The notes: a model not told the origin generated them from the letters alone. A stretch of 64,000 nucleotides of DNA from an uncultured delta proteobacterium (GCA_963745835.1 CAVUZH010000013.1:128001-192000), one strand, 5' to 3'; numbered from the stretch's first letter, positions 7,309-43,032 are shown. Program-made: numbers and translations.

Positions 7309-7477
7309 AAGGCGACAGATTCTTAGCCGATCTAGGCACAACGATTCTGCCCATCCTGCGAATCCTACGGTTGGTATCAGCCTTACGACATTTCGTGCGA
7401 CAGCGATCGAACAAACCACTGTGAGTCTTTGGTATCTACAGCAGGCCTAAAGATAGAAGTCTGATATGCATTCGCGG

Positions 7478-7507
7478 GATCAAACTGATGAAAAATTAAA
7501 TGTAATT
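7478..7507. repeat. TGA-N8-TCA family palindrome (left end of unit 1)
   Basis: GATCAAACTGA TGAAAAAT TAAATGTAATT, 4 bp from the attC end. Confidence 0.65.
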
Positions 7508-7511
7508 ACAT

Positions 7512-7571
7512 GGATAACGCCGCGGTTCAGCCGCGCGAGGTACGAGCGTCGGCTGGAACCGCCAGTTATGC
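7512..7571 (-). mobile_element. Integron attC site (60 bp) of the GFA cassette
   Basis: Minus strand GCATAAC TGGCGGTTCCAGCCGAC...GCGGCTGAACCGCGGC GTTATCC: R''/L''/L'/R' imperfect palindrome just downstream of the stop. Confidence 0.88.
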
Positions 7572-7589
7572 AGCATGCGGACGCCCCCC

Positions 7590-8018
7590 TTATTCTGGAG
7601 CCGCTGAATACTCCGCGAATACCTCGGCTCCGGTCAGGTTCTTCGTTTGGTTTGCGAACGAATAGAACGACGGCTTTTCATCGATAAAAATCTGTTGATC
7701 AAAGACCCATTGTTCTCCGTCATCGAGTAGACCAACAGGAACCGCGTAGTGCCCTTCTTTCTTTAGGCGGTAGAAAAGATGGCTTCCACACTTACTACAG
7801 AAGCCACGCTCGGCCCAGTCGGAAGAACTGAAGACAGATATGCTGTCATTGCGATCAAAATGAACGTCGCTACCGCACTCAATGAAGAGCAAAGGCCCAC
7901 CTGTCCATTTCCTGCACATACTGCAATGGCAGGCACCCACACTCTTGCTGGTCGTCTTTATTGAAATACGGACTGCCCCGCAAAGACAGCTTCCATCTCG
8001 TTTGGTTTCGCCTGCCAT
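7590..8018 (-). CDS. GFA (glutathione-dependent formaldehyde-activating/CENP-V) family protein, gene cassette
   Basis: GSCLCGAV, CHCSMCRKWTG, RGFCSKCGSHL. GAGGAGG RBS. Bounded by GTTATGC (8042-8036) and the complementary GCATAAC attC. Confidence 0.93.
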   Translation of the reverse strand: MAGETKRDGSCLCGAVRISIKTTSKSVGACHCSMCRKWTGGPLLFIECGSDVHFDRNDSISVFSSSDWAERGFCSKCGSHLFYRLKKEGHYAVPVGLLDDGEQWVFDQQIFIDEKPSFYSFANQTKNLTGAEVFAEYSAAPE

Positions 8019-8035
8019 ATCGTCCTCCTCAAATT

Positions 8036-8223
8036 GCATAACTATTAAGTAAGCCGCCGTAGGAGGCGACAAAGGCCGATCGGCCTATCTCGGAACACAG
8101 CTCGGATTTCGAATTACAAACGGCTCGCAATCTCGTCCACTTGAACCAACTCATCAAGAAACATTTTGACCGCCAAACACCGCGCGGCATGGCGGCCTAT
8201 CTACTGGCTCGCAGCCTATTTCG
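8036..8223 (-). mobile_element. attI-like platform, copy 1
   Basis: Non-coding. 41/53 ungapped identity by hand count to 31803-31855, with patchy similarity for ~190 bp. Ends at the GTT where the cassette starts. Three GCCTAT(C/T)T repeats. Confidence 0.7.
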
Positions 8224-8260
8224 TGCGCTAGATTAGAGTCAAGCTCTGTAATCAACGTGA

Positions 8261-8299
8261 GATTGAATTTGATCGATTGATCCGTCAGTTCGATTCAGC
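8261..8299. repeat. TGA-N8-TCA family element, deleted form (right end of unit 1)
   Basis: GATTGAATTTGATCGA...TCAGTTCGATTCAGC. Terminal part is the inverted match of GCGGGATCAAACTGA at 7474-7488 (12/15). Confidence 0.6.
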
Positions 8300-8344: not shown

Positions 8345-8773
8345 CTATTGGATCCGGAATACTGGATGTCGTGACGCTTCGGCAACAAAATCCGGCAGAT
8401 TCGACTTCGGTGTTACGTCAAAGAACGGCCGTACCACAGGCACTTGAGTCAGATACTTCTTTAGCACCGGGGCGGCGTCCTCCGCCGAGAGTTCTAGAAT
8501 TCTTACGTTCTCAAATCTCCGACCCCGTGTTAAGGTTATCTGCTCGGCTGCACGAGCGTTTCGCACCCAGCCCACCTCACCATACGGGGCCACTAGCCAG
8601 CGTTCGCCGGCCCGTTCCACCAGTGTCACGGGCGTTGAGTAGGCGTGACCGCTCTTTCTGCCTCGCACGGTCAGAAGATAGGTATGCGGAGGACTTACGC
8701 CAAGGCGCAGCAAGACACCAATCATCCAATTGATTAGTCGGCGCCACAATCCTAACCGATATGCTCGAGCCAT
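8345..8773 (-). CDS. Nitroreductase-family deazaflavin(F420)-dependent oxidoreductase
   Basis: LLTVRGRKSG...TPV, WVRNARAA, HPVFRI motifs. Confidence 0.9.
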   Translation of the reverse strand: MARAYRLGLWRRLINWMIGVLLRLGVSPPHTYLLTVRGRKSGHAYSTPVTLVERAGERWLVAPYGEVGWVRNARAAEQITLTRGRRFENVRILELSAEDAAPVLKKYLTQVPVVRPFFDVTPKSNLPDFVAEASRHPVFRIQ

Positions 8774-8821
8774 TGTGATCTTGTGTTTGCAGGAACCCGA
8801 AAACCTCAACCTCTTGCATCA

Positions 8822-8852
8822 AGAATTTGTGAAAGGAGAAATCAGTTCAACA
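8822..8852. repeat. TGA-N8-TCA family palindrome (B-type spacer) abutting attC
   Basis: ...TTTGTGAA AGGAGAAA TCAGTTCAACA, matches 41480-41509 and 32054-32083. Confidence 0.65.
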
Positions 8853-8855: not shown

Positions 8856-8918
8856 GGTTAACGCTCCGGTTGAGTCGCGCGAGTTTTACGGCCGTTGGAC
8901 TTCAACCGGTTGTTGGGC
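8856..8918 (-). mobile_element. Integron attC site downstream of the sulfotransferase gene
   Basis: Minus strand GCCCAAC AACCGGTTGAAGTC...GCGACTCAACCGGAGC GTTAACC imperfect palindrome. Confidence 0.78.
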
Positions 8919-8980: not shown

Positions 8981-10090
8981 TCACAGAGCACCAGCCGTCG
9001 CTGTCGCTCTAGCGATCTCCTCTGCACTGTACCTGTAGGCGCGGAATACTCGATTGTGTTGCGCGTTTGACGGTCCGCCAAAATAGGGATTCACATATTC
9101 CCAAACCACTTCTCCATTTGACGTAACCTCAAAGAGTCGACCGAAATCGCCTTCGCAGATCAGTGTGTTGCCGTTGGCTAACCGCTGCGCATTGGAAATC
9201 CTCGGACTGAAAAAATCGCTTTCTCGTTTTTCCCTATATTCCCAGACGATTTGCTTGGTTGCGGGCTCGACCTCAATGACCCGCGAAAAAGGCATCGCAT
9301 GATCTAGCCGATGAGGCCCGTTGTCGAAGATGAGCAGGTTGCCACTGGGCAGCGGCGTGGGCGCATGTTGGCCGCATAGCGGCGGCGCGCCGAGTTTCCA
9401 GATAATCTTCCCGGTTTTTCGGTCGATAATGATGATGGTGGAGATCGTTCGAAAGCTCACGACGATGTCGCCATTAGGCAGCTCGGCCACGCCGTTGCCA
9501 TGCGCCCATTCTTCTCGCCGTTCTTGAACTGCCGTAATGCAATCAATCTCGGGATCGAGATGTTCCCAAGTGCGCCATTCCCAAACCACATCGCCTTGGG
9601 TCGTCATCTCGACCAAATAATCCGCGTACATCCCACCCTGGTGCTCCGTCCCGGGCATGCCCCCTCTAACTTTTGCGACCAGATGCTGCGGAAGGCGATC
9701 CAAGCAGAGCAGCAGAACGTTGCCGTTGCGCAATCGTATGCCATCGTGATGATGATCCGGATGACGTACTTCCCAGAGAACGCGTCCGTTCCAATCTGCT
9801 TCGAGCACGGCGCCGCCCTTCCACGGTTGCCCGCTGATGAAGCGTTCTGAATCCTCCGCGGTCTTTCCATTGTAGAAGAGCGTGCCTCTCTCAGTCAGAT
9901 AACCGTAATTACCTGGAGGATAAGGCATCTGCCAACTATGAATTGCCTTCCCATCGAGATCGATGAGGTAGACATTGCCCCCGCCGCTCATCGGCGCGAA
10001 CAAAGTCAAGCCCGGAAAGGCTCGGTCGTGATCTACCGCGCGCAAACCAGTACCAGCGCGCTTAAGCTTGTTCTGTTCCACGACCGGCAT
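8981..10090 (-). CDS. Aryl-sulfate sulfotransferase (ASST)-like beta-propeller protein
   Basis: HHHDG, WAHGNG, GQHAP, FDNG, SNAQRLANGNTLICEG, VWEYVNPY. Confidence 0.88.
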   Translation of the reverse strand: MPVVEQNKLKRAGTGLRAVDHDRAFPGLTLFAPMSGGGNVYLIDLDGKAIHSWQMPYPPGNYGYLTERGTLFYNGKTAEDSERFISGQPWKGGAVLEADWNGRVLWEVRHPDHHHDGIRLRNGNVLLLCLDRLPQHLVAKVRGGMPGTEHQGGMYADYLVEMTTQGDVVWEWRTWEHLDPEIDCITAVQERREEWAHGNGVAELPNGDIVVSFRTISTIIIIDRKTGKIIWKLGAPPLCGQHAPTPLPSGNLLIFDNGPHRLDHAMPFSRVIEVEPATKQIVWEYREKRESDFFSPRISNAQRLANGNTLICEGDFGRLFEVTSNGEVVWEYVNPYFGGPSNAQHNRVFRAYRYSAEEIARATATAGAL

Positions 10091-10265
10091 AAGTCCTTCC
10101 CTCCATCATTTGTCGATCCGATTACGTTGTGCTTCTGCGAATTAAACGTCTGCTGGTTTGCCAAACGCAAAACTCCAACGGTTTCCTTGGACGACCTCGG
10201 TAAGTTTTGCTTGCCGATTGCAGTTTCGGATATCGTCTTTCCTTCCAAGACCTCCAGCAATGATT

Positions 10266-10811
10266 CTACGATAACAGGCGCTTGCCGCCGGGCACCGGCG
10301 CGTCAAAGGCATTCAAGGTCATGGCTACCATGGTGTAGAACCCGGCTGCGGCAATTAGCTCGATTAGCAGGTCCAAGCCAAGCGCCGCGAGAGCGCGGTC
10401 ATAGGTTGGCTGGCTCAAGGTGCGCGTCTCATTCAGCTCGGTAATTGTTTCATAGACTACGCGTTCATCTTCGCGGGCGAACTCCGGCGTCGACCGCGTG
10501 CGGATCGCATCCACAACCTCCTCCGTGAGCCCAGCCTTCAATCCATTCTTTTCGTGCACGAACCACTCGTACTGCGCCGACCAGTGGCGCGCGACGACTA
10601 GCACCATCAGTTCAAAGAGCCGCTTGTCGAGCTTGCCGGATAGCCTGAATGCGTTGCCGAACTGATTGGCCCGGTCCGCGAGTTCAGGATTTCTGAGCCA
10701 TATGGCGAACGGACCGCGCACGACACCGCCGCGAGCGCCGCCGATTTCCTGGTAGACACGCCTTTGTTCCGCCGTCATTTCTTCTGAGGCTACATCAGGT
10801 ACACGCGCCAT
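10266..10811 (-). CDS. Carboxymuconolactone decarboxylase family protein
   Basis: RGPFAIWLRNPELA, ARHWSAQYEWFVH, GFYTMVAMTLNAF. AAGGAG RBS. Confidence 0.9.
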   Translation of the reverse strand: MARVPDVASEEMTAEQRRVYQEIGGARGGVVRGPFAIWLRNPELADRANQFGNAFRLSGKLDKRLFELMVLVVARHWSAQYEWFVHEKNGLKAGLTEEVVDAIRTRSTPEFAREDERVVYETITELNETRTLSQPTYDRALAALGLDLLIELIAAAGFYTMVAMTLNAFDAPVPGGKRLLS

Positions 10812-11148
10812 CGAATCTCCTTATCTCGTACTCCGTCCATATTCATCCGTTAAATAACCAGAGTCGTTTCTAACATGCCGTGCGGCTATGATGAAGATCG
10901 ATAACCGGAGAATCGCCGAGCTCCTGTTGATTCACATGTCTCTTACTGAAAGGCTGCGAGACATGCTCCGACACGATTAGCTCATCAAGCTAGCATGGTT
11001 GAGGCAATGACAAAAAGATGGGCATGCACATCGATCTTCATAGTAAGGCCCTCCAATAAACAAAAAGACTAGCAGTTTGATTTCCAGCCGGCACAACTGA
11101 AAAGCGATCAAAGAGGAGATTGGTATGAAGCAGCGGCGAGTATCTACT

Positions 11149-12726
11149 TTAAAAAGTTAACCAGGCCAGTTCTGAAAGCATTCGCTGCAACTCACGGAAA
11201 TCGACCGGCTTGACTAGGTGAGCGTCAAATCCCGCCGCTAATGCGCGTTGCTTGTCTTCCTCCTGGCCATAGCCGCTTGTGCTGATTAAATGAATTTCCG
11301 ACAACTCGGAGCATTGGCGTAGCCGTCGAGCGACTTCGTAGCCGTCAATTCCTGGCAAGCCAAGATCACAGAGCACCACTTCCGGCCGAAACTGCTGGAC
11401 AATAGCAATGCCTTGGATGCCATTGTGGGCAATTTCAGTTTGATGCCCAAGTTCATTCAGTAGCATTTGGGTGCTCCGGGCCGCTATGACATTGTCTTCG
11501 ATAATGACCATTCTGAAAGGACGAATTTTAGGTAAATACCCATGCTCCCGAGAAACCGGTGAGATGCTCGGAGCATCGAGCGGTAGCCGCAATGTAAACG
11601 TTGAGCCCTTACCAACGCCCTCACTTTCGGCCTTCACTTCCCCACCGTGCAGCTCAACTAATCCTTTTACTAGCGCAAGGCCGAGACCGAGTCCCCCTCG
11701 GTTACGGTCAACGGCCCGGTCGGCTTGAATGAACGTCTCGAATATCCGGGGCAGCGTGCCGGCATCTATTCCGATGCCGGTATCCCGTACGGTCAAGATG
11801 GCGCTCTTACCATCCGAAGTTGCACTAAGGCCTACCGTCACCTTGCCCCCGCTCTCCGTAAACTTGGTCGCGTTGTGCAGCAGATTGCCGATGACCTGTT
11901 CGATCCGCGTTCGATCGCCGGTAAAAAACAATGGCTGATCCGGAAGTCTGATTTCCAGCAACAATCCACTAGCTTTGAAACTCTCGTGGTAAGCAGTCAC
12001 AGTCTCTGAAATGATGCCCGAGAGCTCGCAGCGCTTCTTCTCCAGGTGAATCTTGCCCGTCGTTATACGGGTTACATCGAGCAAGTCATCAATCAAACGC
12101 CGCATATGCTGCACCTGCCCGTCGATCATGTCACGCAATTCGAGCGATGCGTCAGTCACGTCTCTGCAGCGCATAAGCTCAAGCGCAGTTGTGATGATTC
12201 CCAATGGATTTCTAAGTTCATGGCCTAGCATCGCCAGGAATTCGTCTTTATGCCGGTTAGCTTCCCGCACCGCTGTTTCTGCTTTCTTGCGCTCCGTTAT
12301 GTCGAGGTTGATTCCGCTGAAACGCATCGGCTGCCCTGTCGGGTTTCGTGAAAGTGTGCCGACACCCATCACCCACCTTTCGCCGCGTGCCGGATGCATA
12401 ATGCGAAACTCTATTCGATATTCGGATTCCGAGTTGAAAAACTCACGTCCATAATCATCGACTCGCTTACGGTCCTCTGGATGCACCAAATGGTTTAACC
12501 ATAAATCATAAGTGAGCCGAACATCCGGGGCGAGTCCATACAGCTCCCGATACTCCGGTGACACATAGACCACGTCCGAGGCCACATCCCAGTCCCAAAC
12601 TCCGGCACCCGCTGCGCGTTGGGCGAGCGATAGGCTCTCATTCGTCCGCCTTAACGCTTCCTCGACATTCGCGGACATGGTTTCAAAAGTTAATTTACAA
12701 TCTGAAGTATTTCCGCTCGTACTCAT
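11149..12726 (-). CDS. Hybrid sensor kinase PAS-HisKA-HATPase-REC
   Basis: PAS_3 (GVWDWD, VHPEDR), H-box LGHELRNPL, N/G boxes, receiver CDLGLPGIDG...KP. Confidence 0.95.
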   Translation of the reverse strand: MSTSGNTSDCKLTFETMSANVEEALRRTNESLSLAQRAAGAGVWDWDVASDVVYVSPEYRELYGLAPDVRLTYDLWLNHLVHPEDRKRVDDYGREFFNSESEYRIEFRIMHPARGERWVMGVGTLSRNPTGQPMRFSGINLDITERKKAETAVREANRHKDEFLAMLGHELRNPLGIITTALELMRCRDVTDASLELRDMIDGQVQHMRRLIDDLLDVTRITTGKIHLEKKRCELSGIISETVTAYHESFKASGLLLEIRLPDQPLFFTGDRTRIEQVIGNLLHNATKFTESGGKVTVGLSATSDGKSAILTVRDTGIGIDAGTLPRIFETFIQADRAVDRNRGGLGLGLALVKGLVELHGGEVKAESEGVGKGSTFTLRLPLDAPSISPVSREHGYLPKIRPFRMVIIEDNVIAARSTQMLLNELGHQTEIAHNGIQGIAIVQQFRPEVVLCDLGLPGIDGYEVARRLRQCSELSEIHLISTSGYGQEEDKQRALAAGFDAHLVKPVDFRELQRMLSELAWLTF

Positions 12727-19335: not shown

Positions 19336-19365
19336 GATTGCCCTGATGGATAATTCAATGCGATC
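19336..19365. repeat. TGA-N8-TCA family palindrome (B-type)
   Basis: GATTGCCCTGA TGGATAAT TCAATGCGATC. Confidence 0.75.
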
Positions 19366-30456: not shown

Positions 30457-30515
30457 ATTTGAATTGATCGACGCTTCAACTAAATTCAAGAGGTCTGATG
30501 ATAGGATCAGATGGT
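30457..30515. repeat. TGA-N8-TCA family palindrome (A-type) plus degenerate second site; left end of the TIR unit
   Basis: ATTTGAATTGA TCGACGCT TCAACTAAATT, then GGTCTGA TGATAGGA TCAGATGG. Confidence 0.75.
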
Positions 30516-30685
30516 CGGTTCTAACTTTGAATGCCCCCACCACTTTTGTTAACGTCCGCAAATTTCCGCGGCGAATGCGCTGCCTTAAAAACGTTAATGG
30601 AACTGTAGCTAAATAGTACTGCCTATTGGCAGCCTGCAGATGCAGCGAAATATGAAAACTTTCGACAAGACTACGGTCGGGGGAT

Positions 30686-30934: not shown

Positions 30935-31025
30935 ATTTCACGACTTCCAGTTAGTCGACTGACCAAGCCGCGCCAGCTGTTACAGGTGCTAAAAAGTTAC
31001 TTCTCAAGCCGGTTGTTGGACGGCA

Positions 31026-31778: not shown

Positions 31779-31796
31779 CGACAGTACCTTTCTGCT

Positions 31797-31990
31797 GCCG
31801 TCTAACTATTAGGTGAGCCGACGTAGGCAGCGAGAATTAGCGGTCAGCCTATCTCCGCGACGGCTCGGACAAAAATGGTCCAAATCATTCGCAATATCCA
31901 TCAGGTAACCGAGCTTTGTCAACGTAAGTCTCCGCGAAAAGCCGACCGGCACGGCGACATATCTACTTAACAATCGGCGGCTTATTTCGG
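31797..31990 (-). mobile_element. attI-like platform, copy 2
   Basis: Homologous to 8036-8223, ends at GTTAGAC just upstream of the TIR gene RBS. Confidence 0.7.
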
Positions 31991-32013
31991 CCAGACCATC
32001 GCGAAAGCCCGGG

Positions 32014-32086
32014 CAGGATTGAACTGAACGACGCTTCAATTTGATTTCACGCAGATTGGTTTGATGGAGAATTCAGTTCAATGCTG
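32014..32086. repeat. Complete double-palindrome element (A+B)
   Basis: GATTGAACTGA ACGACGCT TCAATTTGATT - 7 nt - GATTGGTTTGA TGGAGAAT TCAGTTCAATG. Outer CAGGATTGAACTGA/TCAGTTCAATGCTG inverted. Confidence 0.88.
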
Positions 32087-32821
32087 GCATCGCAGAACAC
32101 CGCCGCACCCGCTGATTAAGAGTTCTGCCGGCGTAATCAAGTGGCCCAAGAAGATCCAAGCAGGCCCAATGATTAGAGCGCTCCGATTGCTTGATCATTG
32201 AGTTTGTTTGGGTCTCTTGGGGGAGCAGTTCTCGGGCAAAACACGGACACTGTAAACTCTAAATGGTTCATCAATTTCGCGCGAAACCGACCGTCTTCCG
32301 CAGAGCTCTTGAATGCCTTCAAAAGCCGATCGTCACTAGAACCTAAACACGCCGTCAAAAGACAATAGAACCAAGCCCCGAGAGCTTTCTTTATTGGAAG
32401 GTCTTGGGGCTTGTTGTTTCTGCTGTACGGACAAAAGGCGGACAAGAACCGCTTTTATTAGGATTTGAAGGTTTCATGAAGCACCTCTGCAGTACAGTAA
32501 GCAGGGTACAGCTCTAGAGGAGACAACTAGCTATTATGATGATTAGCCTTCGCATCATCCTTCCGCTGATAGTGAGCTACCGAGAAAATTTCGTATTAAC
32601 TTCAGCTTCGCGTCGGTGCCAATGCGACAAAATCGGTGTAGCAGGAATAAGTCTGCGAAAAAGGATCGCCGTCTGATCCGAAAATAATAAAAGTCACGAG
32701 CGAACCCCCCCATATAGAGACTCTTGCTTCCGATAAAGATATTCCGAGTAGTTTTATTGACGTCTCCTCCTGCATTTCCCAGGAGCCCCTGGTCCATCTT
32801 GGACTTTGATTAATAAGTATA

Positions 32822-33754
32822 TTAACCCTCCTGCTCAATACTAAGTTCGAGCGTTACCTGCATCTGACTGCCGCCCCAGGTTCCTTCCGACAACGTTCGC
32901 GCGCCATCCGCCAGTTCCACGGAAGTTTCCTGTGGAAAATAGATACGCGAATTTTCAGTCAGGTGCATCCAAGGGCATCTTGTCGTGAGTGGGTACCTGT
33001 CGAAATCCATAAAGGCGATGATCAGGCTGTTTCGATCGGCCGAGTAGTAGGGGCTGAAGCTGATTCGGGATTGCGCGGAACCAGCGCAGGGAATTGGGAT
33101 TGTTTTCCATCGGACGGAAGCCGGAACTAGCACATCGGTACGCTCGTACCATAGATTCATAGTGAATCTCTCTTCCCCTTCCCAGGAATCCTCGTATACG
33201 ACATTACTGATTTTCGCTGTCACTTTCACTTTCAGGTGTCGTAAACACGGTGGCCCCATTTCATCCAACAGCTCTCGGACAGCCGAGCCGGCGGCAATTT
33301 TCAGAAGTTTTCCTCGATTAGGGTAGCGATCGAAGCGGTCTTCACGAACTTCACGCGTTATGTCACGACCCGCCAGGTTCGCTATCACTCTAATGCTCAT
33401 TTCGCCGCTTTGGTCTAGGCGAGGGGCTTCAAAGCTAACTACGAAGCGGATATTCGCTATATGAGCGAGCTCGTCGGCTGTCTGATTGATCGCGGGTTCA
33501 TCAAGCTGGGGTTTCTTAACGCAGTTCCATCCTGGCTTCGTCAGCTGATACTCGATCTTTGTGAACAACTCTTCGACGATCGGCTGACGCTCTGCGGCAG
33601 TTAGACGAAGAGCCTCTGAGTCTATTCGGATGGCGGATAACAACTGCTCTGCCGTAACAGGCCGCTCAAGAAAGATAAGAACTCCAAAGACAAGAACAAT
33701 CCGCGCGACGAATAATCTTGGCGGGCAAGAGTCGAATAAGGTTTTAATGTCCAT
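32822..33754 (-). CDS. Hypothetical exported protein
   Basis: 310-aa ORF, GGAG RBS, N-terminal hydrophobic segment. Confidence 0.65.
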   Translation of the reverse strand: MDIKTLFDSCPPRLFVARIVLVFGVLIFLERPVTAEQLLSAIRIDSEALRLTAAERQPIVEELFTKIEYQLTKPGWNCVKKPQLDEPAINQTADELAHIANIRFVVSFEAPRLDQSGEMSIRVIANLAGRDITREVREDRFDRYPNRGKLLKIAAGSAVRELLDEMGPPCLRHLKVKVTAKISNVVYEDSWEGEERFTMNLWYERTDVLVPASVRWKTIPIPCAGSAQSRISFSPYYSADRNSLIIAFMDFDRYPLTTRCPWMHLTENSRIYFPQETSVELADGARTLSEGTWGGSQMQVTLELSIEQEG

Positions 33755-33820
33755 TGTTTAACTCCCATAAAAGATTGCTTTGCCGCTGACATTTAGAGCA
33801 TCGTTTTTTCTTCTGCGTTA

Positions 33821-33854
33821 GCTGGGTGGAACAAGAAAAATTGTTCCACCCAGC
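33821..33854. terminator. Perfect 14-bp hairpin (terminator or mRNA-stabilising)
   Basis: GCTGGGTGGAACAA gaaaaa TTGTTCCACCCAGC, just downstream of the 33870 stop. Confidence 0.6.
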
Positions 33855-33869
33855 GCTCGGGTTATGGCA

Positions 33870-34622
33870 TTACTGTTCGACACGTTTGGGATCCGAACTC
33901 GTCGTCATTTCAAGAGCCAGCTTGAGCTGAGCTGACGTCCCTTTTGCATTGCGGTAATGGATTATCAGAGCTCGAGGTTGCGGAGTAATAGGGAAAAACA
34001 GAGCGCCGTCAAGAGCAGCATTGCCACCTAACCTGAGCGGTGTCGTCAAGCGTCGCCTCTTGAACTCTGCTTCGATTGCTTGGCGATCTTTTACTTCTCC
34101 GTTGTCTCCATTTTGGCCCATGATCGAGACCAATGGTCCCAGCTGGCTCAATCCTCCGAGTATCGGGATCATTCCCGCCCCAGTGCTACCTGCCATGGCT
34201 CCTGACATCGCTAGTGCGGATCCAGCGGCTGTCACTGCCGCGGCTGTCATAGGTGCCGCATAGCTTTTTGCCAGAGAATCGCTCGTTGACTCTAACTGAC
34301 TTAGCGACGCATAGTCCGATCCCAGATAGACACCTCGATGGTCAATCAGTTCAAACTTTTCGAGTGTCATGTCCGAATCCATAAGCGTTCTCAGACTCAC
34401 CTTCATCTCAATCCACTTGGCGCCCTTGACCCATGACCCTGGTCCGTCCGGCTGAACGATATAGTTTACTTTAGTCTCAAGATCCTGATTGGCTGCCTTC
34501 CAGCCCATGTCGGTCGGAGCCTCAGCCGGGGCGCTAACAAGCCGGCTGCCTGCGCACCCAACTAACATGAGTCCGGCGATAGCCAATGCTGAAGTCGTTT
34601 GCGTAGCGTGTTTGCGAAACAT
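33870..34622 (-). CDS. Hypothetical lipoprotein
   Basis: Lipobox LVGC, AAGGAG RBS, central Gly/Ala-rich hydrophobic stretch. Confidence 0.75.
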   Translation of the reverse strand: MFRKHATQTTSALAIAGLMLVGCAGSRLVSAPAEAPTDMGWKAANQDLETKVNYIVQPDGPGSWVKGAKWIEMKVSLRTLMDSDMTLEKFELIDHRGVYLGSDYASLSQLESTSDSLAKSYAAPMTAAAVTAAGSALAMSGAMAGSTGAGMIPILGGLSQLGPLVSIMGQNGDNGEVKDRQAIEAEFKRRRLTTPLRLGGNAALDGALFFPITPQPRALIIHYRNAKGTSAQLKLALEMTTSSDPKRVEQ

Positions 34623-34779
34623 TGTTGATCTCCTTTATTCTATTGTTGCTCTCACAAATTTTAGTTTGCGTCTTAACAGACACACCGCTTCCTCATCTCA
34701 TCTGTCCGCTTCACTAGCCTGTGATCACTATCAAGTTAGCTTGAATACTTTGTCGTTCATGAACTGTGCACCTGAAAGA

Positions 34780-34794
34780 GCAAACAACGTTCCA
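34780..34794 (-). promoter_or_regulatory. Putative sigma-54 -24/-12 promoter
   Basis: TGGAAC-N5-TTGC, 160 bp upstream of the lipoprotein gene. Confidence 0.45.
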
Positions 34795-35375
34795 GTGGCG
34801 CGATCAGTATTAAGTGGCGCGCTCAGTATTATTGGAGGGGCTGAACCTGAGACAAGGAAAAAAAGGCAGATGAGAATGGGACCAACTGGGTTGGTGCGGC
34901 TTTTAGAGGATTGTTAAAGATCCTTTACGCATTGAAATCGGTGGGGGCTCGAGCGACGCACTCTGGTGCATGAGGAGATCGCGCTTATCAGGGAAACTCT
35001 TTATTATCGGCCAGCGTCTATGCGGCAAAGAAAAACCTCTAACGTGTGCACATCACGTTTACTCATTCTTTACTGTATCTATTGGATGCGACGCTTGTCA
35101 CCTTTGGATACAGCAATGCAACTTTGGTTGTTTAAGCACAATATACTCCCAGCGAGCGAAGCGAGGAGATTCAGTGCGTATTCGGGCTTAAGATTTTCGC
35201 AACGCCAAAGTCGAGATTTCCACTTGGCGACCGATCTCCGCCCTATCCCCTAACTTTTCCGCGAGGCGGCGAACGATCTTCGTTCAACCAGGTTATCTCA
35301 AACAACACTGAGCTCGTGAGAACCTGATCTGTTCGATTTCAGTGTCTGTGCGTCTGTTCGATAGGTATAAAACGC

Positions 35376-35390
35376 TGGCACAGCATTTGC
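35376..35390 (+). promoter_or_regulatory. Putative sigma-54 -24/-12 promoter
   Basis: TGGCAC-AGCAT-TTGC upstream of the DUF3574 gene. Confidence 0.6.
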
Positions 35391-35458
35391 CGGTACTAAT
35401 AGATTGTTGGCAGGCTCAATCATATTGGCGTGCGCATTTTCTTGGATCGGGAAAAACA

Positions 35459-35938
35459 GTGGAAAAGGACGTAGGTCGCAGCCTCATCGGATCAATCCTA
35501 ATCATGGCCTGTGCGGCGAGTATTCTTTCTAGTCCCCTAGAGCCCGCAGCTGTTACCCCCGTCCAACAAGGTAATGCGGTAATTCGCGGCGGATGCATAG
35601 ATAGAGACCAAGGCCAGCTGTTGGCGCGAACCGAACTCTACTTTGGACGGGGCAAACCGGATGGCTCGTCGGTGACCGATGATGAATTCCGCACCTTCCT
35701 CGATGACATCATCACGCCCCGATTTCCCAACGGATTGACGGTATTGTCTGGCGCCGGACAATACCGCGGCTCCAGTGGGATAATTCGGCGTGAACGATCT
35801 ATGTTTGTCATACTGCTCTACCCTGCCGGCGAAAAAAGCAGCAGCGCGCGCATCGACGAAATCCGAGACAGCTACAGAAAAACCTTCGCACAGGAATCGG
35901 TGCTGCGCGTCGATGACGAGTCTTGCGTAAATTTCTGA
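35459..35938 (+). CDS. DUF3574 domain protein
   Basis: RTELYFG, ITPRFPNGLTV, GQYRG, FAQESVLRVD. Start uncertain. Confidence 0.85.
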   Translation: MEKDVGRSLIGSILIMACAASILSSPLEPAAVTPVQQGNAVIRGGCIDRDQGQLLARTELYFGRGKPDGSSVTDDEFRTFLDDIITPRFPNGLTVLSGAGQYRGSSGIIRRERSMFVILLYPAGEKSSSARIDEIRDSYRKTFAQESVLRVDDESCVNF

Positions 35939-36254
35939 GCCGCCGTATAGCCCCGTTTCCTATATTCCAACATTAGCGGCCATCCCTCCAACACGACGGA
36001 AACCCGTGTGTCAGAGTGCCAACTCGACTACTGACGGAAGAAGGGATCAGGAGAAAGCGTAAGGTTGAAAACGGTCAAGCTTCGAGTACGGTGGTGGTTG
36101 AGCACACGATGAATCGAGTTTGTGTATCCAAACAGCAGCCGGGGAAGAGAACGATTGATTGGCCATCAAGTGGTCCGCTCTAAGGTGATTCGGGGCGAGC
36201 GATTTTGCACAGCTGTCCGGGAAATGCGCGAGCCGTGATTGCAAATTTCCATTC

Positions 36255-36287
36255 CAGGATTGAACTGAACGACGCTTCAGTGCGATC
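36255..36287. repeat. TGA-N8-TCA family palindrome (A-type); left end of the methyltransferase unit
   Basis: CAG GATTGAACTGA ACGACGCT TCAGTGCGATC; first 25 nt identical to 32014-32038. Confidence 0.85.
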
Positions 36288-36308
36288 TCAATTCCAAACA
36301 GCTTCGTT

Positions 36309-37244
36309 TCAGATCAGCCCCGAGATTCCTTTACCGCGATAGATCACCAGATGATCCTGCAGCTGTACCAATGGCAGGCCGCGGCTCCACAGCTCCCCAT
36401 ACACCCACTCGATCACTTCGCGCTGCTGCGCCTCGCTGAACTGGTGAACGTTCGGATGCAGTAAGATCATCCACACCACCGCCATAAAGATCTCGAAGTC
36501 TTCGACGAAGAAGTCGACCCGGCTCGACCTGCTCAATACCTGCGCGTCGGCAAAGCGCGGGTCGGCGCTCAGTTCCTCGGCGCACGCCTTGAGATCCTGA
36601 TCGTTGTGGCAGCCGAAGAACCGGTCAGCGAAATGGTTATACAGCCATGTCGTGCTCGCTGGGTCGTCGCTGCGACTTGCCATCAGCACGGCGTGGATCG
36701 CCCCGGACGGCCCTGGAGCTGGCTCGGTCGCCAGCAGGTGCTCGTAGAGATTTGCAAGCAGATCGCCCCAGGAGGTTCTGGGGCTGTAGTAGAGCGAGTG
36801 ATGGAGCGTGATCAGCGTCATGCGCCGGCCATCGAGATGCTCCCCACGGAAGCACAGCACCGACTCCGCATCGCGCAGTGCCTCGTGGTAGTTGCCGTGG
36901 ATGACCCGGACCTGGTGGGTGTTCTGTCGCTGGACGCGCTCCTCGACCACGGCCAGTGCGGCGTCTTCGATGTCGAGCAGGTAGAGCCCGCCGCGGAAGG
37001 CCGATTCCAAGATGCGGAACTGCGGCTCGTTACTGGAGCCGATCGACAGCGCTCTCAGCGGCTCATCTAGCGGCAGCGCCTTGTTAAGCGTGCGGAGTAC
37101 GCGAGCCAGGGCGCCAGCGATATCCACTTTATCGTTGCTGTAGCGCGACCAGATCTTGTCCTGCTGGTACATGTGGCTGCCCGCAGCGCGCAGACCGAGC
37201 CGAGTTCGTTCCTCGACCGACAGAACGGGCATCGCTCGAAGCAT
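36309..37244 (-). CDS. SAM-dependent methyltransferase-like protein
   Basis: ALSIGSSNEP (motif I-like), YLLDIE, ITLHHSLYY. GAGGAGG RBS. Confidence 0.7.
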   Translation of the reverse strand: MLRAMPVLSVEERTRLGLRAAGSHMYQQDKIWSRYSNDKVDIAGALARVLRTLNKALPLDEPLRALSIGSSNEPQFRILESAFRGGLYLLDIEDAALAVVEERVQRQNTHQVRVIHGNYHEALRDAESVLCFRGEHLDGRRMTLITLHHSLYYSPRTSWGDLLANLYEHLLATEPAPGPSGAIHAVLMASRSDDPASTTWLYNHFADRFFGCHNDQDLKACAEELSADPRFADAQVLSRSSRVDFFVEDFEIFMAVVWMILLHPNVHQFSEAQQREVIEWVYGELWSRGLPLVQLQDHLVIYRGKGISGLI

Positions 37245-37432
37245 GGGATTCCTCCTCTCAGAAGCTGTTTGAAATCCGGGCGTAAGATTAATTCGTTGGA
37301 GAAGGCTGAGAAGCGCGAAGCGGCTTTGTCTAGCCGTTGGTTAAGCATTGTCAACTAGTCTGGTCGGCAGTATATCCCACATCGGCGGTGGCGTATATTC
37401 AATATACCGTCACGAAACGCCCTTCTCCTCCG

Positions 37433-37507
37433 CAGGATTGAATTGATTCGACGCTTCAATGTGATGTGACGCGAAATCGCGCTGAAGGAGAATTCAGTTC
37501 GATCTCG
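37433..37507. repeat. Complete double-palindrome element (A+B)
   Basis: GATTGAATTGA TTCGACGCT TCAATGTGATG - 8 nt - AATCGCGCTGA AGGAGAAT TCAGTTCGATC. Confidence 0.85.
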
Positions 37508-37698
37508 GCGGGTAACGCATCACTCGGCCTTTATCAGCAGATCAGTCTAAAGGGTGAAGTTAAGACGACCTTCTGCGTAATATTTGATTCCTTCGAGGCA
37601 TACATTTCGATTACACTTACACCCATCACAGATCTCGCCTAACCGCCCAGCGGCTCTCCGGAAGCTTGGGCGGTCCACGCTTTATTTGCTGAATTAGA

Positions 37699-38322
37699 AT
37701 GGCGATAAAAACTCAAAGGCAGCGTAATAAAGCCAGACAAGAGCGTCGAGCGTTAGAAAAGCGCCAACGAGAGCTACGAGAGAATCGAAGATATACCATC
37801 GCCAAAATCCGAAAGCGGTTAGCTCAAATACTTTCTGGCGGAGCATTTATTTTGGGTATTTATGTTGGTGTTTTATTCCTAGTGCCAAAGTATCGCCATA
37901 TCGCCATCTGCTTCAGTAAGCTCGGACGATCCCTTTGCACTCATTTCTCATTAAGAATGAGGGCTATTCTCGCTTTAGTATTATAGTATGACTGCGCCTT
38001 ATATGATTTTAAGTTTAAGGATTCGGCATTTAAGCGTTGGGCAAGAAAGAATGTCCTTTTTTCCACAAAGCCAAAGTTAGCCACACCGAAACTAAAACCT
38101 AACGAATCGACAACAATCCTTTGCGATTTCCGTGCTTTTAGCATGCAGGCGTGTCTGTTGTTCCGATGAATGATGGGGACATGGCGATTGTTGCTTTCTT
38201 TCGTCCCCATTTCTATTTGGGCGACGAGAATACCGACAAAGGTTTACTACGACGATGAAATCGGCAAATGGAATATTGTACTGGTACCCACAGGCAGATT
38301 GAGTTTCAAACGGAGCCGTTAA
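37699..38322 (+). pseudogene. AT-rich hypothetical membrane protein, apparently fragmented
   Basis: 95-aa ORF with basic N-terminus and TM; coding-like sequence continues in other frames. Confidence 0.35.
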
Positions 38323-38756
38323 TCTAGCTCTGGCCCTCTCACGGGCGCGCTTGTCTCGGGCTTACAGGCACTGCGCGCCGAATGACGGCGCTGTTCCGTT
38401 GCGTTTGATTTTGTTCTGTCTTCGACTGCTTTTGATACAGTCCTATACACTACGATCAATAATTTTGACGGCATTGTCTTTGCCGGTGCAAAAGGCCATA
38501 TGGGGACTTAGTTGACGTTTATGGCTCAGCGGGCTATGCTTTTATTGATTTCCTATGACTACCGCCAAAGACACCCTTCTCCGGCGGGGCCCAAAGGAGG
38601 CGATTTGGCACGCATCAAACGATTAGTTATTCGTATCGTTGGGTCGAGGGCTTTTAATCTGAGGGTTGTCGGCGCTCTTGATGCTGGCGGTCCCGATGAC
38701 ATAGCTTCTCCGAAGCCGGTGCTTCATAGATTGGGAAGATAGTCCAAAACAAATTG

Positions 38757-38771
38757 TGGCATGAGAGTTGC
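38757..38771 (+). promoter_or_regulatory. Putative sigma-54 -24/-12 promoter
   Basis: TGGCAT-GAGAG-TTGC upstream of the PG-binding gene. A second match CGGCAT-N5-TTGC lies at 38469-38483. Confidence 0.5.
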
Positions 38772-39067
38772 TTAACAGCGACGCCGTTTTGAGAAGCGAT
38801 CGTTGAACCGTGTCGTTTGTTAACTCTCGATGAGACGGCTGAGTTTCTGCAGGTTTTTAAGCGAACAGTACGGCGTATGGTCGATCAGAAAGAATTTCCG
38901 GCATTTAAGGTCGGCGGACATTGGCGTGTCCGTGTAAGCGAAATCTCTGATTGGATTCAAGGACTCTCTTATATATAGATGCGAAACGCGCTCACGCCGT
39001 TGATGCTCTAAACCACCATGGAATGATCTTGAATGGTGTGCCTAGACATTCCCCAATCCGGCTGCAC

Positions 39068-40030
39068 ATGCACGCTAGTCAAACGACGATTCGTCAATAT
39101 GCCACGAGTGTATTTTTCATTCTCGGTTGCGCTCATTGTTAAGCTCACCGTTAACGGTGGCCAAATTTGATCAAATGCCCTAATCTGTTTCGTAGCAGAT
39201 ACGGGCTGCGGCTTTTGCGATCTCAGAAGACTGCCAACTAGAGACGTTGTCAGTTCCTGTCCTGGAAAACAAACAGCTTCTTCCGCAAAATATCGTTGAA
39301 ATCCATAGACCCACTGAAGATGCACCGTCGATTGTACGACCGTGTGCTTTGACGAATGATGACGTGCGCCGGCTTCAGAGAGGTTTACACGAAATTGGCT
39401 TTGAGCCAGGTACAGTAGATGGCGTCGCCGGTGCAAGAACGAAAGCGGCTTACGTTCGACTGGAGAGCGGCTGTTCGAAGTTCGGTCCACGGCTTGAAGA
39501 ATTAAACCTGCACACTGCAGAAGGCCATTTAACTGCGGGAGCTGCGGCTGGGTACAAGTTCCAAGCCGTCGGGAGACACAAGAAATTCAGGGGCAACTTC
39601 GTGAGGCTGGATTTTATCCCGGTCCAGTGGACGGGGTCTTCGGCAGCAGGATGCAATTGGCGCTGCGGAAGTTCAAAGCCGGCTGCCTCATGGCCAACGA
39701 ATTTAAAGAAATCTTACACGAAACTTCGCCGGCGATGTTTCCGGAACTGCTGATATCCGGCCAGAGAAAACCTCCATTTCCTCGTCGAAAGCAGAAGCTC
39801 ACCCGACGCGCAGCGCTCACGATCAGCAATCCTCGACTGTACAAGCGGTGCGAGCTCGCGAGCGGGTTCGCATTCTTCAGTTGCGTTTACGCGACGCGGG
39901 ATTCGATCCCGGAGAGGTTGATGGGCTCATGGGGCCGAAAACGCAATCAGCATTGGCGCAGTACGAGGCGAGTCGAGGCAGCGAAAAGACGAAGGCAAAT
40001 TTAAGGCATCAGACGGTCCGCGACTATTAG
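39068..40030 (+). pseudogene. Peptidoglycan-binding (PG_binding_1 x3) protein, frameshifted
   Basis: LQRGLHEIGFEPGTVDGVAGARTKAA, GFYPGPVDGVFGSRMQLAL, LQLRLRDAGFDPGEVDGLMGPKTQSAL in successive frames. Confidence 0.75.
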
Positions 40031-40144
40031 GCATTTGAGATTTACTAGATAGATGCGCGTTGCTTATACTCGCCGGAGGCGTTTATTTAACTACGCTGCT
40101 ATCGCCGGTCTTGAAGCCAGTTGCTTCTAAATTGAGAACAATCA

Positions 40145-41171
40145 ATGAACTGGAACCTATCTCGTTGGCAACTGGGTAACGGTTGCAACAGTTTCACCGG
40201 AGAGTCGATCCTCGCCTGCGCGCCGCCCACTTCGGGCGTCTATGGTATCTTCAACGGCGCTCGCACAATTTTCATCGGTGAGTCGGCAAATATGAGGGAG
40301 GCACTTCTATGCCACGAACAGTGTGCTCGATTTTCGCCACTTAAAACCGATGGCTTTCACTTTTGAACTTTGCGTGCCCGAATTACGCAAGCTCTGGGTG
40401 GCGGAGCTCATCACAACATTTCGTCCCTTGGCAAAATCAGAGGCAGCCTTGAGAGAACTCCGCTGGCTGTCAGATCGGCCGGCACTAAATGAACCTGACC
40501 GGGGTGGTTGGGAACTGGGAACATACACCGACCGTCCGGAATTCCCGGTGCACGAGAGTGAAGAGCGCCCGAGATTTCGTAAGCCATTACCCGTAAAACG
40601 AAACTTGGCTTTAGCGTTAGTGGAGGTGTTCGTGGTCACGACAGCGGCTTGGTTTTATTTTGGCCTGCCCGCCCAATTTGTCATTTATAAGGACATTAAT
40701 GGAGTGAATTCCGCCTTGGCCCAAACGGAGATCGCTTTGGGACCTTCTAACACACAGTTGAATGACACGGCTGGCCGATCCACGAACCAAAATGCTGGGG
40801 CGATTTCAGTAACGCCGCCCATCCCACCCTGGAATGATACGGCGCAACTTTCCGAGGTACATTCGGCCGCAACCGAAGGTGTTGTTCAATTGGAAAAAGG
40901 TCCAGGCATCGGCGCTGCGACAAGATCTGAGTTTCGGAAAGACTGGTCGGTCCAGATTTCTGCGGCACCTGCAAAAGAGATTGCCGATGGCTTAGTGCAA
41001 CAACTGAAAGCCAAAGGCTACGATGGCTATATCGTGCAAGCAACGGTAAAAGGACAAAACTACTACCGCGTGCGCGTTGGACGTTTCAACACGCGAGAAC
41101 ACGCGGAATCTATGCGTCGGTCGTTGGCGCGCCACGAAGGCTATCACGACGCATATCTCGCCTCCGATTGA
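40145..41171 (+). CDS. SPOR domain protein with GIY-YIG-like N-terminus (one frameshift near 40330)
   Basis: APPTSGVYGIF...IFIGES N-terminus, TM, C-terminal WSVQISA...YYRVRVGRF...A SPOR. Confidence 0.75.
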
Positions 41172-41479
41172 GCGACTGCAAAGCTAATTCGCGTTGTATT
41201 CGCCTCAGCGTGTCCTTTCGGTCATTCTGTCTGACCTTGACAGAACACTGCCAGCAGTGATCAAGCGCCCGTCCTAGCTACATGCTGAAACCTCATCCAC
41301 GCCTGATTTCGATAACGGAAATCGCCAATGAAAAAGCCCAGGCAAGCAGCTCGGCAGTTGAAAGCCGGCGCCCAAGGCACGTCGTCCGTGATGCGGGCAC
41401 GGACAAACCCCGCCAGGAGGAGGCAGCCTCGCTACAAGGGCTCGGCTATTCAGTCGAGGGTTAGTTCGATGGCCGGGAA

Positions 41480-41513
41480 GATTGGGTTGAAGGAGAAATC
41501 AATTCAATCCTGG
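41480..41513. repeat. TGA-N8-TCA family palindrome (B-type), degenerate A site just upstream
   Basis: GATTGGGTTGA AGGAGAAA TCAATTCAATC CTGG. Confidence 0.82.
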
Positions 41514-41680
41514 GGTTTCAGACCCTAAGAAATAATCCTCAAAAATCGTCTCTGCAAAGCAATTTTTCTGATTGCTTCTTCCGCTCTCGCTAGCATTTCC
41601 AGCGCGGAGCGGTCCATCGTATATTAATCGTGGAGATCGGATTTTATCATCTCAGTAGAGGTAACTTCGACTACAATTGC

Positions 41681-42891
41681 TCAGCGACTACCATAGGCGA
41701 TAAGACGCCGCTCGCGCTCGATTTGGTGAAGCACGGCAGGATCGTTCGCCCATAAGTGACCGTGCCCACGGTTGAACGATTGCCCGAGATCCACGCTCGC
41801 CTTTAGGTAATGCGGCAGAAATTCCTTCGCGTTCGTGCCCTCGACGTGACGGTTGTCGTAGTTCAGTTCGAAGAAAACTCCCTCATTGCTTAGGAGCTCC
41901 GATATCTTACGGGCGTAATAGCGGATCTGCACTTCGGACATCTCGGACAGCGACATCGTGTTGACGACCAGAACGACCTTGCGCCCCTTGGCGCTGAATT
42001 CCTCGAAACGGTAATTCGGCAGCCCAAAGATACCCTCTCCGGAACAGGACCGGGAACATTCCGGGTGAATCCCTCGCCACAGTTCCGGTCGGGTTACCGA
42101 GAGATACATCGCGGCGACGATCAGGGACTCGGGCAGGTCGCACGCCCAGTAGCTCGCCGTCGGCAGTATCTCCGAGAAGAAATAGGTAAATCCCCCGTAA
42201 CCGCTGCCGATCTCCAGCACGGTGACCGGCTTCCCGGAAGTGGCTCGGTTTTCCAGCCAGGGAAGCACACCAGCCTGATACAGAATCGCGATGATGTCCT
42301 GGTATGCAGTGAGGTCGCGGTTCACCACATAACCATCTACGTCCCAGCCGATCTCGCCCATGATACGCGGCACTTTGACCAAATACTTGTTCGGGATCTC
42401 TCTCGGATTTTTTTGAAAGCCGCAACACTTATGTCGGGCGGAGCGCCGCGATGCTTGGCGTCGTACTCCGCAGCGGACACGACCTCGGGCGCCGGGGGAT
42501 GCTTCCTAGGATAATCGAAGTTATAGAGGTCCCATCCCGTGAAGACCTCCATGTGGAATCGAAGCTGATCCACCTTTTCGCGAGTGGGCTTGTTCGCTAG
42601 GAACGCCCTAAACGGATTGGACGGATTGACCACGTCCTTCCACCCCTGGCCTGGAAGGAACGTCGCTTCGTCGAGTCCATTGGATTTCATATATGTCGCA
42701 CGCTCTTCGTCCGCCTTCTTTCCCTGGACCCAGGCGGCCGTGGCTCGCTCGTATTCGGCGTCCGTCAAAGGTCGTTGCTGCTGCAACAGAACGATATCAT
42801 GGGCGGGTTTGTTGCAGCCGAGAAAAAGGAACAGCGCCAGAGCGAGAACCGTCCGTGTTGCCGTACCAGTAGCTTGGGGCCGTGTACGCAT
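41681..42891 (-). CDS. Putative sugar O-methyltransferase with lipoprotein-type leader (one frameshift near 42395)
   Basis: VLEIGSGYGGF, CDLPESL, VVNTMSLSEMSEVQI. Upstream frame has lipobox FLGC. Confidence 0.75.
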
Positions 42892-42967
42892 AGGCAGTTC
42901 CTTTCGAGCATCATTAATCGCGCAGAACGAAAAGATTTGTCAAATACGCTGTGCTAGTGCACCCTAA

Positions 42968-43032
42968 GATTGAATTGATCGACGCATCAGTTCAAACATC
43001 GAGAGATTGCGGTGCTGGAACCCAGTCAAATT
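42968..43032. repeat. Double-palindrome element (A intact, B degenerate)
   Basis: GATTGAATTGA TCGACGCA TCAGTTCAAAC - 7 nt - GATTGCGGTGC TGGAACC CAGTCAAATT. Confidence 0.8.

Follow-up and report, generated by a model that had tools for sequence, protein, structure and literature searches.

In engineered cassette exchange, heterospecific lox or FRT sites with the same arms and different 8-nt cores are placed at the ends of a unit, and the resulting swaps keep its orientation. Among natural systems, the dif (pdif) modules on Acinetobacter plasmids are served by XerC/XerD (PMC6449649, PMC7399989, PMC13141974), and REPINs, which are doublets of repetitive extragenic palindromic (REP) sequences, occur together with RAYT transposases (PMC3116915, PMC3337134), as far as these accounts describe them. 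Here we analyzed a 64,000-nt stretch from an uncultured delta proteobacterium (termed the window; C13:128001-192000 of a 7.28-Mb assembly in 25 contigs, corresponding to 0.9% of the genome), in which two types of short palindromes, termed A and B, occur singly and as A-B doublets between gene units. The reshuffled DNA beside these paired palindromes suggests an undescribed way of exchanging genes, for which no enzyme was found. Our preferred reading, to which we assign somewhat less than an even chance, is that the palindromes are hairpin-forming exchange sites of a cassette-like unit system in Binatia-like soil bacteria, the enzyme not being present in this genome and the system being non-autonomous here.

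A first-pass annotation of the window had described a recurring palindrome with 11-bp arms and an asymmetric 8-bp core, an architecture borne out by pattern and profile searches as well as by the alignment of doublets. Searching the window with the 30-nt consensus of that annotation and allowing up to 3 mismatches yielded 11 matches at six places (19336, 32017, 32054, 36258, 41480 and 42968), compared to 0 matches in 100 dinucleotide shuffles used as control. The 11-nt arms are common to both palindrome types (GATTGAAYTGA / TCARTTCAATC), and the cores fall into two types overlooked before, with ACGACGCT or TCGACGCW for type A and WGGAGAAW for type B. Inverted 11-nt arms around an asymmetric 8-nt core are the geometry of tyrosine-recombinase core sites. 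Based on nhmmer profiles, the whole genome contains 14 A matches (E up to 0.03) and 12 B matches (E up to 0.15), of which five each are located in the window; the profiles added the copies at 30457/30459, 37436, 37475/37476 and, weakly, 8822/8833 (Table 1). In total, 10 of the 13 copies listed previously were recovered by search. The copies at 7478 and 43005 are too degenerate for either approach, and a supposedly deleted copy at 8261 was detected by none of the searches, the whole-genome profile scan included, and stays unconfirmed.

All cores in the window are oriented alike, i.e. direct and not alternating. Where units abut, an A, a short spacer and a B follow one another on the plus strand, forming a doublet of 63-71 nt with a spacer of about 2-9 nt (2-8 nt in the doublet count, 7-9 nt in the window). 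Two doublets are located in the window (32017-32083 and 37436-37504) and four more elsewhere in the genome. The bases beyond the outer arms prolong the palindrome as inverted and not as direct repeats, and no target-site duplication was seen, in agreement with the initial description.

Comparing orthologous loci indicated that the sites are joints at which the flanking DNA differs between relatives, as had been anticipated. The congener G006 is collinear with the window, with a 12.5-kb block (30487-42967) replaced by 4 kb in G006:C27 and both ends of the replacement lying inside A sites. At the left border, the homology to G006:C27 stops at 30488, where the A-left arm agrees with G006 in 10 of 11 positions and the A-right arm in 7 of 11. 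At the right border, the homology to G004:C396 begins exactly at 42968 and G006 resumes past the 42968 site, an unusual ending of the A-right arm being common to the window genome, G004 and G006. We extended the comparison to the population level with contigs of four runs from four studies. One contig (X1) joins 37435 to 42968 through an A, without the 5.5 kb in between, its shorter side comprising 90 letters and 12 letters fitting both sides. Only this joint was counted, as most of the others were contigs of other organisms, with doublets that map to different A and B copies. A further contig (X7) keeps 36258-37343 and diverges just left of the A at 36258. RNA runs contained only small portions of the window.

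Sequence comparison further shows the transfer of one unit between genera: 36295-37303 has 96% identity to its counterpart in G051 and 94% to that in G086, both belonging to other genera, and it is covered with 7-8 differences in contigs of all four runs, representing the four studies. In G051, an intact B is present upstream of the shared unit, with the 3' end of a PF04392 gene coming next. In the window and in G086, the B-left arm and the core are retained, with divergence setting in after ...TGGAGAA, followed by an attC remnant that begins exactly at the core/arm border.

The same pattern emerged from the site contexts in bulk, counted as pairs that are not independent events. Among 253 distinct A contexts, 37 pairs have the left flank alone in common and show on average 4.57 mismatches in the A-right arm versus 4.58 for unrelated contexts, whereas for the 56 pairs having the right flank alone in common this value is 1.50. 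Likewise, among 150 B contexts, 88 pairs have the inner side alone and 60 the right flank alone in common, with the B-left arm tracking the inner side (2.40 vs 4.48 mismatches, baseline 4.25). Across these contexts the two flanks of a site assort independently, and both A and B have repeatedly acquired new combinations of neighbouring DNA, joined within the palindrome.

The unit anatomy is best described on the minus strand, where a gene is followed, in some cases after an attC, by 4-8 nt, B', a spacer, A', a leader of about 110-240 nt and the next gene. A unit starts with the outer half of A', comprising the core AGCGTCGT and the arm TCAGTTCAATC, and ends with the outer half of B', comprising the arm GATTGAACTGA and the core ATTCTCCW, sometimes preceded by a classical attC. 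The leader carries promoter-like hexamers and is followed by one or a few genes. Between abutting units, the doublet consists of the two sites plus an inner hairpin that is variable. The proposal that the palindromes bound gene units is supported by this arrangement; A' 30457 and B' 19336 bracket an 11-kb operon consisting of a hypothetical gene, a PF04392 gene and a multi-PAS kinase, and A' 42968 and B' 41480 bracket two small genes. The accompanying statement that all units carry their cargo on the minus strand is correct for the Pfam-supported genes beside sites (GFA, F420H2-like, His-phosphatase and TIR), but 37505-41480 and 35342-35938 also contain plus-strand genes (SPOR, PG_binding, DUF3574).

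The strongest context of the sites, overlooked initially, is the PF04392 (ABC_sub_bind) gene family. In an alignment of 26 leaders, constituting one leader family, the PF04392 genes begin, with start codon and signal peptide, at a distance of about 110 nt from A. A PF04392 gene is present in 48 of 80 metagenome loci; on the minus strand it is found at a fixed distance left of A in 35 of 84 metagenomic A sites, and the 3' end of such a gene lies 56-70 nt right of A, just past B, in 16 of the 84. Searching the own genome for paralogues of complete units returned leader fragments only.

A number of features of the leaders, units and sites were observed along the way. A short conserved GGCYTATTTCG-like motif is shared by several leader families that are otherwise different, at a distance of about 25-42 nt from A (e.g. 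31975-32016; L009, L075, L076, L080), and it forms a direct repeat of two copies in the leader at 32017. PF04392 genes also occur in very long, tightly packed tandem arrays (C19:380-425 kb, C3:1405-1429 kb, C22:230-252 kb), in which several matches have internal stops. The gene 31026-31778 (minus strand), which is the first gene of the unit headed by A' 32017, encodes a TIR domain of the CAP12/Pycsar-effector type (PF10137, E 5e-29) and is possibly an anti-phage defence gene. Directly left of the degenerate B at 7478, a 107-nt stretch (7372-7478) is absent from the orthologous place in G006.

We analyzed the folding of 40 doublets, which hardly vary in their outer arms and in either core but do so in their inner arms. 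As single-stranded DNA, a doublet preferentially forms one long hairpin of -9.9 kcal/mol, compared to a sum of -5.0 kcal/mol for two local hairpins. This hairpin has an internal loop of 8 x 8 nt, with no consistent bulged bases seen. In the full-length minimum-energy folds the outer stem was used in 28 of the 40 doublets, two inverted palindromes thus folding into one hairpin as in REPINs. Pairing of the inner arms in a fixed register was 72%, showing no gain over shuffled partners (71 ± 1%). On the plus strand, G.T pairs exceed A.C pairs in B (62 vs 20, p 4e-6) and in the inner stem (95 vs 29, p 2e-9), p-values that are overstated as the copies are related, whereas the outer stem leans in the opposite direction (11 vs 28). 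The better-folding strand is the plus strand, opposite to the genes, an observation that speaks for a form of single-strand DNA, comparable to attC and REP sequences, and against terminators acting in mRNA. Such an excess of G.T over A.C indicates folding of one strand, arguing against a lox/FRT-like double-strand site.

Insertion sequences (IS) provided a further view on the sites. A 2.53-kb element of G042 encodes a 396-aa IS91-type Y2 transposase and, upstream of it, a 299-aa tyrosine recombinase. Two type-1 copies, 99.7% identical to each other, each separate the core of a different B site from its TCAGTTCAATC arm, and type-1 relatives in G041 and G042:C18 are found at the equivalent border of A', so that all four type-1 copies are located at the core/arm border of A' or B. 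None of the five type-2 copies (L135, L144-L147) is in a palindrome, their right flanks resembling attC 3' core sites. IS91-family elements insert from a single-stranded circle, next to a tetranucleotide target adjoining oriIS and with no target duplication (PMC13181058). This mode of insertion fits the observed flanks and suggests that the palindromes are exposed as hairpins. BLAST with the G042 element at 1e-10 returned no match in the genome of the window.

To describe the attC sites, we used a covariance model (R1) of seven local attC sites with a structure written by hand, which is a small local model and not the published one. A MAFFT alignment of 12 attC sites had yielded no RNAalifold structure, its loops being misaligned, hence the hand-made structure for the seven. 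An RNAfold-based attC finder was discarded, as its matches were mostly false and in coding DNA. The attC sites 7512-7571 and 8856-8918 directly adjoin B' in the same orientation, in line with the earlier report of two attC sites ending about 4 bp from a palindrome, and they have the top R1 scores in the window, though as training sequences. In the former, we take one base of the 5' arm of the minus strand to be bulged. The model is supported by four untrained attC matches elsewhere in the genome, none of which is accompanied by a B'; overall, attC lies beside B' in 2 of 6 genome attC matches, with 150 of 1550 candidates scored in the whole-genome search. The narrowness of R1 is evident from an attC-like hairpin at 37510-37566 that it missed. 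For A, B and the doublets, R1 gave no match at E up to 10 with filters off in the whole window. As the window has only two strong attC sites and two remnants, the proposed capture and dispersal of integron cassettes is not shown.

The palindrome family is widespread in Binatia-like genomes and soil metagenomes. The A 20-mer, allowing up to 1 mismatch, is present in 12 of 41 related genomes including the window's own, with 0 for the reversed control. Among the 40 relatives it occurs in 10 of 24 members of the same family, 1 of 5 of a second family and 0 of 11 of a third. The A copy number varies from 0 to 54 between related genomes (54 in G042 and 12 in G041 with up to 2 mismatches). In a species-representative collection the exact 20-mer was found at 60 loci, about nine of which are expected by chance by our estimate, mostly in metagenome-assembled genomes (MAGs) titled Candidatus Binatia or 'delta proteobacterium'. 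One scan of metagenomes contributed at least 120 A-bearing contigs. No match to A or B was obtained in viral contigs, and none in 72,556 plasmid records. The 20-mer also occurred in bins labelled Acidobacteriota, Nitrospinota and others; given the chance matches and the identical contigs in differently labelled bins, we do not claim a cross-phylum spread. Such identical contigs in bins of different phyla (L055 = L091 = L017; L066 = L069; Pyrinomonadaceae vs Binatia) suggest that some public MAGs are mis-binned.

We tentatively favour the cassette-like reading because the sites have two conserved kinds of cores and a fixed polarity, the joints fall inside the sites, a unit has moved and attC sites are linked to B'. 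The exchange would be made by a site-specific enzyme recognising the folded single strand, like integron integrases or HUH enzymes. This enzyme would be encoded elsewhere, rendering the copies in this genome non-autonomous and partly decayed, and the two different cores would keep unit start and unit end from recombining with each other. In its most complete form, this would be a natural cassette exchange distinct from integrons and Xer modules, in which promoter-bearing units flanked by heterospecific hairpin sites (A at the start, B at the end) are swapped between chromosomes in preserved orientation by a single-strand-recognising recombinase, leading to the spread of solitary PF04392 sensor-binding-protein genes; this full scenario we consider unlikely.

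Several observations weigh against the cassette-like reading. The joints would equally be expected, under any of the readings, from homologous recombination within the approximately 20 identical bases of A-left arm and core. In 178 pairs from 100 doublet contexts, the inner part is the same and both flanks are different, which fits equally well with the doublet spreading as a unit, and these pairs share with the A and B pairs that they are not independent events. Not every moved or variable segment ends at a site: the His-phosphatase segment 17389-19279, said to be bounded by palindromes, moved between species and is elsewhere in G006, yet its ends are not at a palindrome, the B at 19336 lying 55 nt outside. 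Similarly, the break points of a 13-kb variable block of C16 with three sites and of a B...A unit of C8 are not in sites. Several sites are stable at the corresponding places in a congener (91-95% identity), including B 8822 with its attC and the copy at 7478, whose orthologue in G006 is equally degenerate. The inner arms covary weakly (-1.94 vs -1.57 ± 0.16 kcal/mol for swapped partners). The own genome has 113 PF04392 matches, most of which are located in tight arrays without A or B, indicating that the sites belong to solitary self-promoted units and not to the PF04392 family as such.

The search for the enzyme adds to these points. In agreement with the first-pass annotation, no recombinase was found in the window, all IntI-model and Y1_Tnp matches of the genome being outside. 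IntI in the window's genome is not over the cut-off, with a best score of 86 of 265 bits. Genomes with A have an IntI-model match in 4 of 12 cases, those without A in 8 of 29 (the unpublished G012 being among the eight). The IS-borne integrase shows a similar distribution, with 2 of 12 versus 5 of 29 genomes (one of the five being the unpublished G018), and has no close homologue in the window's genome, where its best relatives are Xer-like with 34-37% identity. The best dif-like candidate (C3:1067398), located with a degenerate consensus, has arms unlike those of A and B, and the A/B spacer is 8 nt, not 6. Bona fide IntI over the cut-off was obtained for 10 of the 41 genomes, and the IntI-like genes of G041 and G043 have no A or B within 17 kb and 12 kb, respectively. 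As attC sites without an integrase are known, the IntI co-occurrence test is a weak one.

The main rival is a selfish repeat resembling REPINs or bacterial interspersed mosaic elements (BIMEs), which we regard as rather unlikely. Here, the A-B doublet would be a small non-autonomous hairpin element whose intergenic copies are made by an enzyme of the HUH type (RAYT-like) or of another type, single A and B sites would be decayed halves, and the joints would result from recombination between dispersed copies and from IS targeting, as known for REP sequences. The folding of two related palindromes into one long hairpin, the better folding of one strand, the targeting by insertion sequences, the doublet pairs with a constant inner part and the copy-number range between related genomes are all consistent with such an element, and the own genome contains 12 Y1_Tnp matches. 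However, none of these matches has an A or B within 3 kb except single chance arms, and in G042 only 2 of 18 Y1_Tnp genes are within 1.5 kb of an A, and no Y1_Tnp gene is flanked by the sites. Furthermore, the orientation of the sites is fixed relative to the genes, with PF04392 start codons at a constant spacing from A', the conserved cores differ between the two halves, and in lone B...gene...A units the conserved arm is the one beside the gene. Presence/absence of a bare doublet was not seen in the five loci compared with congeners. For B 19336, no counterpart was seen at the corresponding place in G006.

A transcription punctuation of a spreading gene family, which we deem improbable, fits the positions of the sites but not the folding strand. 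B' would serve as terminator or insulator and A' as operator or upstream element of self-promoted units, above all PF04392 genes, with a DNA- or RNA-binding factor recognising the sites and the reassortment being a by-product of recombination between conserved 20-mers. In several leader families A' is indeed located at a fixed distance upstream of start codons and of what we read as promoter-like hexamers, B' follows stop codons by 15-35 nt, the sites at 30457 and 19336 bracket the 11-kb operon, and some copies are stable between species. On the other hand, with the better-folding strand opposite to the genes the hairpins are worse in mRNA, there is no T-run after B', sites are found at only a few of the 113 PF04392 matches, the cores are of two discrete types and conserved like the arms, and the sites also adjoin attC and unrelated genes and contain the joints.

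Least probable, and in our view very doubtful, is the initial 'mini-integron' interpretation as double-strand tyrosine-recombinase sites of the lox/FRT/dif type served in trans by a Xer-like or integron integrase, of which the unit boundaries, the joints mapping between the arms and the attC sites adjoining some B' copies stand, along with the 11-8-11 geometry, the asymmetric conserved cores of like orientation and the occurrence of IntI in 10 of 41 genomes, whereas the dif test (arms and spacer length), the attC-model test and the IntI test (4/12 vs 8/29) all fail, 2 of 6 genome attC matches are beside B', the strand-specific wobble is unexpected for a duplex site and the units carry their own leaders, unlike typical cassettes.

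Table 1 Sites, attC elements and associated features of the window, with IS91-family copies of related genomes.
Feature	Coordinates	Strand	Support and context
Degenerate B-type palindrome	7478..7507		Read by eye; missed by pattern and nhmmer; low-coordinate end of the region; 4 nt from attC
attC	7512..7571	-	R1 64.9 bits, but training sequence; hairpin seen; just downstream of GFA gene 7590-8072 (minus)
B palindrome	8822..8851		nhmmer partial, E 0.15; pattern with 2 mismatches; conserved in G006; between attC 8856..8918 and the start of open reading frame (ORF) 8345-8809 (minus)
attC	8856..8918	-	R1 55 bits, but training sequence; follows arylsulfotransferase-like gene 8981-10090 (minus); conserved in G006
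B palindrome	19336..19365		Pattern with 3 mismatches; nhmmer E 2.4e-4; downstream of the stop of the multi-PAS kinase operon (19540, minus)
A palindrome	30457..30486		nhmmer E 1.3e-4; left border of the 12.5-kb variable block; upstream (minus) of leader and operon 30338-19540
attC remnant, 5' half only	30961..31021	-	R1 13 bits, E 0.76, weak; right after TIR-domain gene 31026-31778
A-B doublet	32017..32083		A 32017-32046, 7-nt spacer, B 32054-32083; pattern and nhmmer; one long hairpin as single strand; at least 20 genomes of the family have leader and doublet, 73-85% identical
A palindrome	36258..36287		Pattern with 1 mismatch and nhmmer; 21 nt past the stop of the methyltransferase-like gene
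Horizontally shared unit	36295..37303	-	ORF 36309-37244 (previously called 'methyltransferase'; no Pfam hit) and ribosome-binding region
B half-site (left arm and core)	37286..37303		Fused at the core/arm border to the attC remnant
attC remnant without 3' core site	37304..37346	-	R1 11.2 bits for 37286-37346; sequence reading
A-B doublet	37436..37504		A with 1-nt insertion (E 0.03), 9-nt spacer, B 37475-37504 (E 6e-6)
B palindrome	41480..41509		Pattern and nhmmer E 2.4e-6; 3' end of unit 42891-41681 (minus)
A and degenerate B	42968..43034		A 42968-42997, B 43005-43034; pattern and nhmmer; right border of the variable block; better B copy at the corresponding place in G004
IS91-family type-1 copies	L134 (G042:C23:250000-268966) 1690-4218, 9581-12108; L136; L143		

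Apart from the sites, three features of the window stood out. A separate repeat of about 157 nt (6333-6490, 51530-51695, 61966-62128) is present throughout the genus in dozens of copies per genome (80-96% identity), and may be the real high-copy family of this lineage, of the REP or miniature inverted-repeat transposable element (MITE) kind, and the partner of many Y1_Tnp genes. The region 19540-27805 (minus strand) corresponds to a giant multi-PAS sensor kinase with about 13 tandem repeats of approximately 510 nt, split into ORFs in different frames (19540-21729, 21811-22242, 22112-22864, 22599-23567, 23733-25451, 26162-27805). Either the region is broken or the assembly is wrong in the repeats, and the G006 contig stops inside the region. 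Two paralogous plus-strand genes (51683-53440 and 55751-57466), encoding 585 and 571 aa with 72-78% DNA identity, are located 4.06 kb apart.

In the literature searched, we found no paper combining 'Binatia' and 'integron', the A/B motif itself not having been searched in print. If the palindromes are true exchange points, they would join integrons and dif modules as a third class of gene-module systems with short sites, belonging to an uncultured, abundant soil lineage and with a two-core design that would preserve unit orientation. They would furthermore provide a simple sequence marker for accessory-gene hotspots in metagenomes, given the at least 120 contigs of one scan, as well as a clear target for a new recombinase and a natural example of IS91-family homing to hairpin sites. 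If they are only REP-like, the finding would be more ordinary, still revealing a repeat family that structures the gene content of these genomes.

Compared to the described systems, A and B combine features of several. The engineered lox/FRT exchange is a laboratory design, unlike A and B, for which no recombinase is known and the single strand seems to matter. With REP and REPIN sequences, as portrayed in the cited accounts, they share extragenic palindromes paired into a longer hairpin, the occurrence of singlets, the lineage-specific distribution and the targeting by insertion sequences. They differ from that portrayal in the lack of a flanking RAYT-type gene, the low copy number here (14 A, 12 B), the different conserved cores of the two halves, the fixed polarity to genes and the whole gene units that differ on either side. 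The pdif modules, to the extent covered by the cited reports, are likewise gene modules between short palindromes with 11-nt arms, have no dedicated recombinase adjoining and are shuffled between replicons or genomes. In contrast to these modules as reported, A and B are chromosomal, were absent from the plasmid collection and are in direct and not alternating orientation, with a spacer of 8 nt, arms unlike the dif-like candidate of the genome, two core types and evidence for single-strand folding.

A and B also resemble integron attC sites. Both are imperfect-palindrome sites located 3' of genes in one orientation, with the strand opposite to the genes folding better, and the doublet resembles an attC in its conserved outer boxes, unpaired middle and variable inner stem and loop. 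Gene content at the same locus differs between close relatives in both cases, both kinds of sites occur in genomes without an integrase, and true attC sites adjoin B'. Nevertheless, the doublets are unmatched by the local attC model, and their unpaired parts are 8 nt long, conserved in sequence and of two kinds. Each half is itself a palindrome that occurs alone, and both halves are joints. In addition, the A/B units have promoter-like leaders and show no association with IntI.

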